From a virus (taxonomy: Duplodnaviria > Heunggongvirae > Uroviricota > Caudoviricetes), in the IMG/VR virus record IMGVR_UViG_2703718817_000007: a DNA stretch of 15,704 nucleotides; one strand, given 5' to 3'. Positions within the stretch are counted from its first letter, which is position 1; every line of letters begins with the position of its first letter. Positions 7,687 through 10,539 of the stretch are shown piece after piece. The notes under the pieces are model-generated. The model searched no databases. It was not told where the DNA came from and saw only the letters and a list, made by a program, of their open reading frames with translations. The position numbers were made by a program, and so were the translations under genes.

Positions 7687-8628
7687 TTACCCCCTGAATC
7701 CTGCCGGGATCTGGCTGTAGTCCACGTTGTCGTAACTGGCTTTGAAGTACGCGTCTTCGCGTTTTTCGGTGTACGTGCTTACGGACGGCGATAAGCGCAG
7801 GGAAAGCTCATCCCATTTTTCCCGCAGCTTCGACGGGCTGAGCACGTTACGGCACCAGAACGGATCGCGGCTGACGCGGCTGTACATCTCGCAGATTTGT
7901 TTGTGAGTACGACCATCCTGCACACACATCAGGCGAATTTCGTTTGCCCAGGCTGTCCAGTTCGGTTCTTTGGGACGAACCACCTCGCCGTCACATTCGG
8001 CAGCCTGCTCGTACAGGGCGATGATTTTTTTCCAGAGCCACTGTGCGCAGGTCAAATCATCCTGCGTCCCCCACTGGCGCTTTTTAGGGCTGAATACAAC
8101 CGCATCAGGATGGCGAGTTAAAAAATCCTGTTCAGCCGTCTGCGTGTCCGGTTGCGAAGCGTCCGGACGAGAAGGTTTTTTATCTGACGGATCATGTTTT
8201 GATTTTACTGACGGATCCCCGCCAGATTCTGACGGGTGAAAACCCGCTTTTTTGCCAGATTTCGACGCATCAAATTTTGACGGGTCAGATTTTGATGCGT
8301 CAGATTTTGACGGGTCAGAATCTGACAGTTGAGAAAATGCCGCAGCCTGAAGCTTCGCAACGTTAAGCTGATAAACATTCGACGCATTGCGGTTACCCTG
8401 GCGACGCGCCTTACGCGTTAACCAGCCTTCTGCTTCCAGCCGTGCGATAGCCGTTCTGACTGTACTCATCCCCGCGCCAATCTGGCGGGCAATGGTTTCA
8501 ATCGATGGCCAGCACACACCTTCGTCATTACTGAAATCAGCCAGGCGGGCCATAATTGCCACGCTGGATAATTTCATGCCTGACGCTGCGCAACCATCCC
8601 ATACATAGCCGGTTAATTTAGTGCTCAT
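7687..8628 (-). CDS. Replication initiator (lambda O-like organisation: N-terminal winged-helix domain, repeat-encoded linker, C-terminal domain), 313 aa
   Basis: ORF track 7687..8628. N-terminus (..SSVAIMARLADFSNDEGVCWPSIETIARQIGAGMSTVRTAIARLEAEGWL..) is a typical replication-protein HTH; the middle is a low-complexity linker (SDSDPSKSDASKSDPSKFDASKSGKK..) encoded by tandem DNA repeats; the position after cro/cII matches O. Confidence 0.7.
   Translation of the reverse strand: MSTKLTGYVWDGCAASGMKLSSVAIMARLADFSNDEGVCWPSIETIARQIGAGMSTVRTAIARLEAEGWLTRKARRQGNRNASNVYQLNVAKLQAAAFSQLSDSDPSKSDASKSDPSKFDASKSGKKAGFHPSESGGDPSVKSKHDPSDKKPSRPDASQPDTQTAEQDFLTRHPDAVVFSPKKRQWGTQDDLTCAQWLWKKIIALYEQAAECDGEVVRPKEPNWTAWANEIRLMCVQDGRTHKQICEMYSRVSRDPFWCRNVLSPSKLREKWDELSLRLSPSVSTYTEKREDAYFKASYDNVDYSQIPAGFRG
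8181..8330. repeat. Iteron-like tandem repeats (about 8 copies, 15-bp period) inside the replication initiator gene; candidate origin
   Basis: Copies at 8223-8237 cagattctgacgggt, 8256-8270 cagatttcgacgcat, 8271-8285 caaattttgacgggt, 8286-8300 cagattttgatgcgt, 8301-8315 cagattttgacgggt, 8316-8330 cagaatctgacagtt, plus degenerate copies at 8181-8217 next to an AT-rich patch (8170-8215). Confidence 0.55.
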
Positions 8629-8976
8629 GACCGACCTCTATTTCCCTGAATTTACGACGAAACTGTTCGAGCGGACTGAAGCACTCATGCTCATAGCCTT
8701 CGCGGAGGTAGATAACCCGTTGTGTTTCCGGTTCCCAACGAATGACTCTGACGGGCACTCCGTAGTGATCTTTGAACCAGCGGTTAACTTGTCGCAAAGG
8801 ACTGTCTCCTTCTGCCGGTTGAAATCCCCCACAGCCCACTCTGCAAAGCTGTGGGTTACAATTTCCCTGTCACCTGGTACATTCACTGCATAGCAATATT
8901 CCACCTTCGCTTTTCCACCCGGTACAGGAAGCGCAATCAGTTGCGAGCGACGGTAGTGTGTTGTTAAACTGTTCAT
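8618..8976 (-). CDS. Hypothetical small gene between the cII-position gene and the replication gene; apparently split across two frames (possible -1 frameshift, 1-nt indel, or two overlapping ORFs)
   Basis: Frame A (8638..8976) starts with an ATG overlapping the upstream stop (ATGA at 8973-8976) but its C-terminal half is Ser/Thr-rich and low complexity. Frame B (8618..8839) has globular-looking composition (..[49 protein letters not shown]..) and its stop overlaps the replication gene start. The frames meet at a C5/G5 run (8826-8830). Confidence 0.4.
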
Positions 8977-9542
8977 GCGTTAGTTTCTCCACAACCAGAA
9001 GCAATCGACGCCACGACGCCCGGAGCTGCACACTCGCGGGCGTCATTACTTTCTGAAATGCAAAAAATTTTGTAGACAAGTGCTGCATGCTCCTGCAGCT
9101 TCGAAATTGAGAGATACAGCTCGTCGTTAATTGCTGTCTTCTCATGCGGTTCCACTACACCGTCTTCGATTGCTGAACGAATCTGTTTTGAATAACTGCC
9201 GATCTGTTCAATGACTTCCAGCAGACGCTGGTTAATATCGGCGTTGTCCACATCCTCGACGTCAGGAAGAGACACAAAGACGCCATTTGCAGACTGCGCC
9301 ACAGCATCAGCAATGAAATGAGTGCCACCAGCACGCTGTAAAACCATTGCCCATCCCAGCGGGAAAATCTGATCGCCATCTGCACGAAGGCGGTTGAATA
9401 AAGCGTTTTCTGTTACATCGAGCCAGTCAGCCGCTTCAGCGTAACCACCCGGCAACGCCGCGATAGTTTTTCTGACAGCTTTCACGTACCACTCAGGCTG
9501 TTTTTCTATTTTCCAGTGATGCTTACCCACGATTAGCCTCAT
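8973..9542 (-). CDS. cII-position regulatory protein (HTH-containing; resembles the phage CII / CP76-type family by architecture), 189 aa
   Basis: ORF track 8973..9542. Directly downstream of cro; HTH-like segment [21 protein letters not shown]. Family assignment is from recollection of 186-CII-like proteins and is uncertain. Confidence 0.45.
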
Positions 9543-9864: not shown

Positions 9865-10539
9865 ATGAAAACAATCCATGACATCCGGCGGTCTAACGCC
9901 AGAAAACTGAGAGATGGTGTTGGCGGGAATTCTTCCTTTGCCACTATGATTGATCGCGAGCCAACCCAGACCAGCAGGTTTATGGGAGATGGTGCTACTA
10001 AAAATATCGGTGACAGCATGGCACGACACATCGAAAAATGTTTCGACCTGCCTGTCGGATGGCTCGATCAAGAACACCAGACAACGAACATCACAAAAAA
10101 ACCTGATGTTTCAATCACTAATAAACAAATCACATTAGTCCCTGTCATATCATGGGTACAGGCCGGAGCATGGAAAGAAGTTGGATATTCTGAGGTTGAT
10201 TTGAGCACAGCAGAAACGTATCCCTGCCCTGTACCCTGTGGGGAAATGACTTATATCTTGCGGGTGATAGGTGATTCAATGATTGATGAGTACCGCCCGG
10301 GAGACATGATTTTTGTCGATCCTGAAGTACCTGCCTGCCACGGTGACGACGTTATTGCATTGATGCACGATACAGGTGAAACCACCTTCAAAAGGTTGAT
10401 AGAAGATGGGACACAGCGTTATCTCAAAGCGTTAAACCCAAACTGGCCTGAGCCTTACATTAAGATCAACGGTAATTGCTCTATAATTGGAACTGTGATT
10501 TTCTCAGGAAAACCAAGAAGATACAAAATCAAAGCCTAA
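9865..10539 (+). CDS. cI: CI-type prophage repressor (N-terminal HTH plus C-terminal LexA-like S24 peptidase domain), 224 aa
   Basis: ORF track 9865..10539, ATG start. C-terminal domain has GDSM (Ser nucleophile), ..TFKRLI.. (Lys) and VQAG linker motifs as in lambda cI/LexA. Confidence 0.85.
   Translation: MKTIHDIRRSNARKLRDGVGGNSSFATMIDREPTQTSRFMGDGATKNIGDSMARHIEKCFDLPVGWLDQEHQTTNITKKPDVSITNKQITLVPVISWVQAGAWKEVGYSEVDLSTAETYPCPVPCGEMTYILRVIGDSMIDEYRPGDMIFVDPEVPACHGDDVIALMHDTGETTFKRLIEDGTQRYLKALNPNWPEPYIKINGNCSIIGTVIFSGKPRRYKIKA

Follow-up and report, generated by a model that had tools for sequence, protein, structure and literature searches.

The segment at positions 8976-8618 (minus strand) of the prophage record IMGVR_UViG_2703718817_000007, analysed here as a window of 15,704 nucleotides (nt), very probably contains two separately initiated, out-of-frame overlapping genes, as judged from the way their reading frames are conserved: ymfM and a gene encoding a protein of the DUF4222 family. 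The first gene lies in frame A (8638-8976) and encodes 112 amino acids (aa) followed by TAG. The second lies in frame B (8618-8797), which is -1 relative to frame A; it would start inside ymfM, at the TTG codon at 8797-8795, and encodes 59 aa up to the TAA at 8620-8618. A first interpretation, made from the letters of the window and hereafter called the sequence-only reading, had described the segment as one small gene split across two frames, possibly owing to a pseudogenising 1-nt indel, a homopolymer sequencing error or programmed frameshifting, and had listed two genuinely overlapping genes as a further option. It is this last option that the conserved frames, starts and Shine-Dalgarno (SD) motifs support. 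Moreover, the homologues that we aligned present two conserved separate open reading frames (ORFs), the outcome that the sequence-only reading itself had named as contradicting a split gene. In the 5′ part of the segment it is frame A that is under purifying selection, in the 3′ part it is frame B, and selection keeps ymfM open as far as a fixed stop codon beside the downstream ribosome-binding site.

Purifying selection changes frame within the segment

Frame A was identified as ymfM by its match to K-12 YmfM (b1148, 'cell division inhibitor YmfM'), with 4 differences among the 112 residues, all of them in the tail, and by a full-length match to phrog_1170 (E = 6e-70). Homologues of YmfM of 112-117 aa reach down to 47% identity. 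The gene in K-12 e14 is the same gene in the same surroundings, with ymfK, ymfT and ymfL upstream and the replication gene downstream, and it also carries the nested DUF4222 ORF; it differs in having GGGTG where the window has a run of five Gs, and a chimeric remnant, ymfN, for a replication gene. The four differences between the window and K-12 in the overlap are all silent in frame B and all alter the ymfM tail. A 63-aa profile, phrog_20047, matches residues 1-63 of YmfM and may rest on truncated forms of the protein.

We then compared nonsynonymous (pN) and synonymous (pS) divergence in the different frames. Over the 51 codons of the 5′ part, pN/pS was 0.47 in frame A, 1.12 in frame B and 0.98 in frame C, which places purifying selection on frame A in the N-terminal part of ymfM (codons 1-52, 8821-8976, minus strand). 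Over the 3′ overlap, frame B showed a pN of 0.157 and a pS of 0.647 (pN/pS 0.24), while the values for frame A were 0.284 and 0.184, respectively, indicating that frame A is slaved to B there. The substitution patterns thus bear out the earlier observation that the 3′ part looks protein-like only in frame B. The pS of B in the overlap was practically that of the adjacent, non-overlapped N-terminus of the replication gene, computed for the same locus pairs (0.647 vs 0.639, 136 pairs). Since the synonymous divergence of B equals that of its neighbour, no amino-acid constraint arising from the tail can be measured. The part of ymfM that forms the tail over the DUF4222 gene (8641-8797, minus strand; 160 nt when the TAG is included) is stop-free and otherwise unconstrained. 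Synonymous divergence was not used for the YeP2 clade described below, where anchoring at the ends misaligned sequences of unequal length and made the values unreliable (pN 0.40).

Structure predictions also separate the two parts of YmfM. The AlphaFold2 (AF2) model of the whole protein has a mean predicted local distance difference test (pLDDT) score of 52. Strands and helices are predicted in the N-terminal part, with a pLDDT of 53-69, while residues 68-112 score below 40 and the tail is predicted to be disordered. At least three types of N-terminal domain were found joined to one B-slaved tail: the YmfM-like type, a type beginning MNSLTAKSRLPQLRMIPVPG… and a type beginning MNSLNRLRPAKQFRCLPLVGK….

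The DUF4222 gene has a conserved start of its own

The frame B protein matched the Pfam family PF13973 (DUF4222) with 68.7 bits (gathering cut-off, 27), aligning to positions 1-52 of the 53 in the profile, and it matched phrog_1343 over its full length. DUF4222 proteins were found as standalone proteins: 139 homologues, most of them 59, 61 or 70 aa long, could be aligned starting at one common Met, and frame B has the usual size of the PF13973/phrog_1343 family, 59-70 aa. The AF2 model of the protein is a small beta-barrel (pLDDT 83), and the predicted fold is a Tudor/SH3-like small barrel. Searches against PDB sequences and NCBIfam gave no match for either YmfM or the DUF4222 protein, and our literature searches found no function for the family.

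Among the 49 distinct homologues, which are e14/SfV-type sequences, B started at the same codon in every case (41 ATG, 5 GTG and 3 TTG), and 46 of the 49 have an SD-like motif at -17 to -5 of this start. In the window, the motif AAGGAG at 8806-8811 (minus strand) can be read 8 nt 5′ of the TTG. A Klebsiella phage sharing 74% nucleotide identity keeps both ORFs and has an ATG at exactly the position of the Escherichia coli TTG codon. In addition, B stands alone in the YeP2, Providencia and EKP1 phages. These patterns indicate that B is a separately initiated gene with an SD and a start of its own.

The DUF4222 frame stops early, after 6 and 22 codons respectively, in Phytobacter sp. V91 and Pantoea rodasii (L048 and L049), where the ymfM-type frame is still open for 114 and 198 codons. 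In these two, B may have become a pseudogene recently, or the assemblies may contain errors.

Frame A is kept free of stop codons across the DUF4222 gene

Frame A was open over all of B in 47 out of 47 genome loci, drawn from about 15 enterobacterial genera, and in 49 out of 49 distinct sequences. We calculated exactly, by dynamic programming, how probable an open frame A would be given the B protein and the local codon usage; the median was 0.05 per sequence (range 0.02-0.16). A stop arises in frame A only where B has an NTA or NTG codon with a purine directly after it, so that the Val, Leu and Ile codons of B can be divided into at-risk and risk-free sites. None of 214 at-risk codons ended in A or G, compared to 80 out of 248 at risk-free sites (Fisher p = 2.5e-25). 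For example, alignment column 18 consists of GTC in 22 sequences and GTT in 21, and column 4 is limited to CTT, CTC, GTT, ATC and ATT, while CTG accounts for 21 of the 41 codons at the risk-free Leu of column 31. With a pS of about 0.65, synonymous changes approach saturation, so that the lineages are nearly independent. We also examined 24 phylogenetically independent pairs. At at-risk sites these pairs showed eight T<->C changes and none with A or G; at risk-free sites, seven changes were T<->C and 16 involved A or G. The hypergeometric probability of zero in eight, worked out by hand, is about 8e-4.

Several controls were available. Frame C was shut after 1-3 codons in most loci. The distant DUF4222 genes of Citrobacter phiNP and 'Elizabethkingia' EKP1, which have no A-type gene upstream in frame, contain frame A stops. 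At YeP2-type loci, frame A stops occurred within B at no fewer than three positions, in 7 out of 34 distinct sequences. Both frames thus remain open across the diverged e14/SfV-type relatives beyond what chance would give, as expected for a nested pair of genes.

The end of frame A is fixed beside the downstream start codon

Codon 56 of B is NTA in 42 out of 43 sequences (ATA in 32, TTA in 8, GTA and CTA in one each; all are rare codons), and this places the frame A stop at a constant position. A downstream ATG follows this stop, in frame A, at 42 out of 43 loci, 9 nt away in 40 of them and 6 nt away in two. The spacing does not depend on the identity of the downstream gene, since at least six unrelated N-termini were found there, MKANLMKK among them. 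The length of the DUF4222 C-terminus does vary (59-86 aa), because B runs on into these different downstream genes and ends at the first stop that its frame encounters there. The boundary of the module for mosaic exchange of replication genes appears to lie at the downstream ATG. The sequence 5′ of that ATG, consisting of the ymfM stop and the SD, is common to the loci, and at least six unrelated replication or regulatory genes come after it.

In the window, the junction occupies 8626-8640 (minus strand) and comprises the TAG at 8640-8638, GAGG at 8638-8635, a 6-nt spacer and the ATG of the replication gene at 8628-8626. The sequence-only reading had described the frame A stop as immediately followed by GAGGT and the replication ATG, and this is indeed the arrangement, with AGGTCGGTC directly after the stop and then the ATG. 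It was also right in placing the frame B stop inside the start of the replication gene: the TAA at 8620-8618 lies beyond the ATG, the two genes overlap by 11 nt and B extends to 8 nt past the ATG. YmfM and the replication protein share one frame (…NSGK*RSVMSTK…). With TAG 9 nt before the replication ATG and GAGG in between, the spacing is that of termination-reinitiation.

Related modules arrange the same genes differently

Beside the nested e14/SfIV type to which the window belongs, three other arrangements were found. In the serial type, represented by YeP2 and 34 distinct relatives retrieved from IMG/VR in a scan of viral contigs with the YeP2 protein as the only query, a 53-aa A gene precedes B (A-ATGA-B). 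Its TGA overlaps the ATG of DUF4222 and its product is homologous to one of the enterobacterial N-domain types; in YeP2 itself, the B stop overlaps the replication ATG. YeP2 relatives share three genes and their order with the window, as A(53 aa)-ATGA-B-ATGA-rep, and the window keeps an ATGA at the ymfL/ymfM junction. Unlike in YeP2, A of the window reads through B and ends 9 nt before the replication ATG. In the nested type, the codon at the B start is TGC or TGG. In the window, TGC stands in place of this TGA, so that A reads through B, and B has to initiate alone. The 53-aa gene of YeP2 is unannotated (L054 1010-1171; relatives L062-L103), and the proteins read MNIVAAKRFIPQLRCIG…RKWGRV, MNIVAAKR.IPQLRC….

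The run-on type comprises SfV, ST64B, Stx phages and Hafnia yong2. Here frame A has no stop at the end of B and continues into a Phage_ASH domain right after the overlap; ST64B and an Stx1 phage also have a Rha domain. DUF4222 lies wholly inside the coding sequences (CDSs) concerned, namely SfV orf37 (L052 1052-1888), ST64B sb41 (L053 1058-2215), 'Ant' of the Stx1 phage (L061 1184-2206) and 'Ash' of Hafnia yong2 (L056 1184-1867). The tail might serve as a linker to the Ash domain in SfV-type phages. In Hafnia yong2, two ATG codons are located at the B stop and could be the true, independent start of Ash. Finally, a prophage of Entomohabitans teleogrylli (L104 1501-1737) carries a 78-aa ymfM-like gene from which the core of B has been deleted in the frame of A, and the end of this gene overlaps the start of the replication gene by 11 nt. 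A is thus retained where B has been lost, in line with A being a gene in its own right.

Translational coupling may explain the open frame

How the open frame A is maintained is a separate question from its existence. We propose that translational coupling to the replication gene accounts for it, a tentative explanation that could well be right and that we stop short of calling probable. Translation of ymfM would begin at its ATG (8976-8974), coupled to the ymfL stop (TGA, 8975-8973) in an ATGA overlap; the ATGA-coupled start had been pointed out from the sequence and holds. The gene would then make its conserved N-terminal domain of about 52-60 residues and continue for some 52 more codons over B, which in turn would be started inside ymfM at TTG 8797, behind AAGGAG, and read in the -1 frame. 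Ribosomes arriving from ymfL and ymfM would cross B, terminate 9 nt before the replication ATG and reinitiate there. Such coupling would protect the operon from polarity and from stretches of untranslated RNA, and the amino-acid sequence of the tail would be a side effect of coding for B. The arrangement probably originated from a serial A-ATGA-B-ATGA-rep module that lost the TGA at the B start, where the codon is now TGC or TGG.

The most serious alternative is that both genes are real and that frame A stays open because YmfM needs its tail as a protein, in the form of a disordered segment that tolerates changes in sequence and would serve the protein's activity, its localisation or its controlled proteolysis. 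Stop avoidance and a fixed stop position would be expected just as much if the full-length product were required, and the tail is predicted to be disordered, a kind of region in which substitutions are tolerated. Furthermore, the full 112-aa ORF caused filamentation when expressed, according to a preprint (bioRxiv 10.1101/2020.11.19.390815). Against a needed tail stand the synonymous sites of B, which carry no measurable extra constraint, the YeP2-type phages, which manage with a tail-less 53-aa A protein, and the Entomohabitans variant, in which most of the tail is gone. A distance of exactly 9 nt to the next ATG, kept in front of unrelated genes, also points to a translational role. The tail-less A proteins, the lack of extra constraint on B and the exact spacing together favour the translational reading, and we regard a required protein tail as possible, although rather unlikely.

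Several points nevertheless weigh against coupling, or against the strength of the signal on which it is based. Coupling is one of several explanations, and a sequence-tolerant disordered tail that YmfM needs would leave the same signature. That the tail is translated and that B is initiated at the TTG are deduced from sequence conservation. The p-values of the large samples overstate independence, because the sequences are related, and the test with independent pairs relies on eight events. In YeP2-type phages, A ends at the B start and yet frame A is open in 27 of the 34 sequences; these sequences are close relatives with T-rich third positions, so that the openness may be partly inherited or compositional. 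In the run-on phages, the Ash domain may have its own start, which makes the role of read-through there ambiguous.

Single-gene, frameshift and indel explanations fit poorly

Existing annotations might suggest that one of the two ORFs alone is real. Genomes annotated with the Prokaryotic Genome Annotation Pipeline (PGAP; RefSeq) carry a 59-aa DUF4222 CDS at exactly 8797-8618 and no ymfM, leaving the 177 nt upstream empty, whereas K-12, SfIV and many other phage records have the 112-aa ORF alone. In K-12 MG1655, the intact 59-aa DUF4222 ORF, which encodes an identical protein, is present at NC_000913.3 1204001-1204180 (L004 3502-3681) without any feature. The curated K-12 annotation thus lists only ymfM and the NCBI pipeline only DUF4222, so neither displays the real gene content. 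A lone DUF4222 gene leaves unexplained the constraint on the N-domain in frame A (pN/pS 0.47), its ATGA-coupled start and its standalone 53-aa homologue in YeP2-type phages; a lone ymfM leaves unexplained the Pfam match of frame B, its pN/pS of 0.24, its conserved start and SD, and its standalone existence in YeP2, Providencia and EKP1 phages. We consider it very improbable that only one of the two is a gene.

Programmed -1 frameshifting near the G run, yielding an N-domain-DUF4222 fusion in addition to YmfM, is a shade less credible still. The two frames are related by -1, frame B is open in the window from 8869 to its TAA, and slipping by -1 on G GGG G would produce a fusion of 119 aa. The resemblance to the frameshifting of dnaX and of the tail chaperone G/GT is confined to this frame relationship and to a homopolymer near the coding switch. 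In contrast to those systems, there is no slippery heptamer, stimulatory structure or conserved site here, and the downstream frame has its own start. Specifically, no heptamer of the form X XXY YYZ is present (the zero-frame reading is G GGG GAU, and the A-site GAU cannot re-pair at -1), the fold of the 97-nt downstream RNA was unremarkable compared to shuffled sequences (z = -0.52) and an Rfam search of the window gave no match. The G run itself (8826-8830, minus strand; Val-Gly-Asp codons of ymfM) is a mutational hot spot and not a conserved shift site. K-12 e14 reads GGGTGAT there, a change that is synonymous in frame A and closes frame B with a TGA; in the Klebsiella phage, a TAA interrupts frame B between the G run and the B ATG; and in many of the 47 loci frame B is open for just 0-9 codons upstream of the B start. 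Frameshifting would also leave unexplained why frame A stays open for 52 codons past the shift site.

That an ancestral N-domain-DUF4222 gene was broken by an indel at the G run, or only appears broken through a misread, is the least credible of these explanations and can be dismissed: 481 bases around the region recur with 100% identity in isolated phages and in complete E. coli genomes, at least 30 of which are listed, which speaks against a sequencing error, and the two-frame layout is kept in the Klebsiella phage and in all 47 loci, with DUF4222 existing as a standalone protein and frame B shut upstream in many of them, which speaks against a pseudogene. An indel or a sequencing error was accordingly rejected as the cause of the A-B split, given identical DNA in independent genomes and a layout kept across genera. 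The sequence-only reading was correct that one extra G in the run at 8830-8826 joins the frames into 119 aa; what did not stand was its headline description of one gene split across frames.

The run does mutate or is occasionally misread. Rare variants in assemblies have six Gs, giving the 119-aa fusion (P0065), or four, giving 63 aa (P0063 and P0066), and P0097 is also listed with these three for variants in G-run length. Other fused or truncated variants arose from indels elsewhere (P0031, P0053 and P0059). Such forms are rare and occur at scattered positions, as expected for sporadic indels, beside clusters of the 112-aa form that hold hundreds of members and up to 1295.

The overlap bears on the SfiC division-inhibitor phenotype

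The region was present in 2675 out of 5426 complete E. coli genomes searched, about half, K-12 included, and ymfM has a published phenotype. It has been reported as an SOS-inducible, SulA-independent filamentation factor responsible for the SfiC phenotype (Ansari et al., bioRxiv 10.1101/2020.11.19.390815), and the same preprint reports that YmfM inhibits FtsZ-ring formation. The assignment to SfiC used the ymfM ORF cloned in pBAD24 plus a deletion (bioRxiv 10.1101/2020.11.19.390815), and in earlier screens the activity was reported to map to fragments containing ymfM and parts of its neighbours (PMC6206680). As cloned, the K-12 ymfM ORF contains the B SD, the TTG and codons 1-53 of the 59 of B, with the Pfam domain nearly complete, and the published deletion takes out both genes. 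Because clone and deletion both affect the nested B, they do not separate A from B as the inhibitor. We would offer only as a speculation, and a rather doubtful one, that the 3′ half of ymfM is a stop-free ribosome track whose residues are dictated by DUF4222 and, as a corollary, that the SfiC inhibition belongs wholly or partly to the DUF4222 protein. The nested ORF did not come up in term searches of the preprint's text (bioRxiv 10.1101/2020.11.19.390815). Our literature searches, with ymfM combined with overlap and with DUF4222, found no paper discussing the overlap, and the sources examined do not note that e14/SfIV-type DUF4222 members are nested in another gene.

The pair affects how a K-12 gene known for a published phenotype, the 35-year-old SfiC, is annotated and interpreted. 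It also provides a well-sampled natural out-of-frame overlap of 160 nt in which one frame shows stop avoidance alone, and it informs how overlaps arise, here probably through an ATGA stop that was lost, and how they are maintained. Overlapping genes are known in phages, and lambda Rz/Rz1 is a nested out-of-frame pair. The ymfM/DUF4222 pair resembles Rz/Rz1 in that a larger gene holds a small, separately started one in another frame and both frames are kept across relatives. Unlike in Rz/Rz1, B is not fully embedded but extends 20 nt past the end of A into the next gene, and the outer gene is under no amino-acid constraint over the overlap, just stop avoidance. It is therefore a new, well-supported example of overlapping genes and not a new kind of system.

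Genomic setting and further observations

The genes studied here lie in the immunity/replication region of a lambdoid prophage, and those at issue are all on the minus strand. The prophage is of the e14/SfIV type, and the segment 8976-8618 belongs to its early-right operon. A cI-like repressor gene (9865-10539, plus strand) is followed by a cro-like gene. The gene in the cII position (8973-9542, minus strand) is ymfL-like: it matches Pfam Phage_CP76 (E = 1.3e-13) and is annotated as ymfL in RefSeq genomes. Downstream of the overlapping pair, the gene at 7687-8628 (minus strand) encodes a lambda O-like replication initiator with a Pfam HTH_36 domain, and phage records name it replication protein O. 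Within this gene, at 8208-8330, five or six copies of a unit of about 15 nt (CAGATTTTGACGGGT-like) are arranged at 15-nt spacing. They look like origin iterons inside an O-like gene, as in lambda, and encode a repetitive DSDPSKSDASKSDPSKFDASKSG stretch.

Opposite the overlap, the plus strand of the window contains an ORF of 90 aa (8621-8893). The Klebsiella phage record annotates the equivalent opposite-strand ORF as a CDS, QBQ71618.1 (L003 1694-1981, minus strand). Given the evidence for two genes on the sense strand, this opposite-strand ORF is probably a spurious call.

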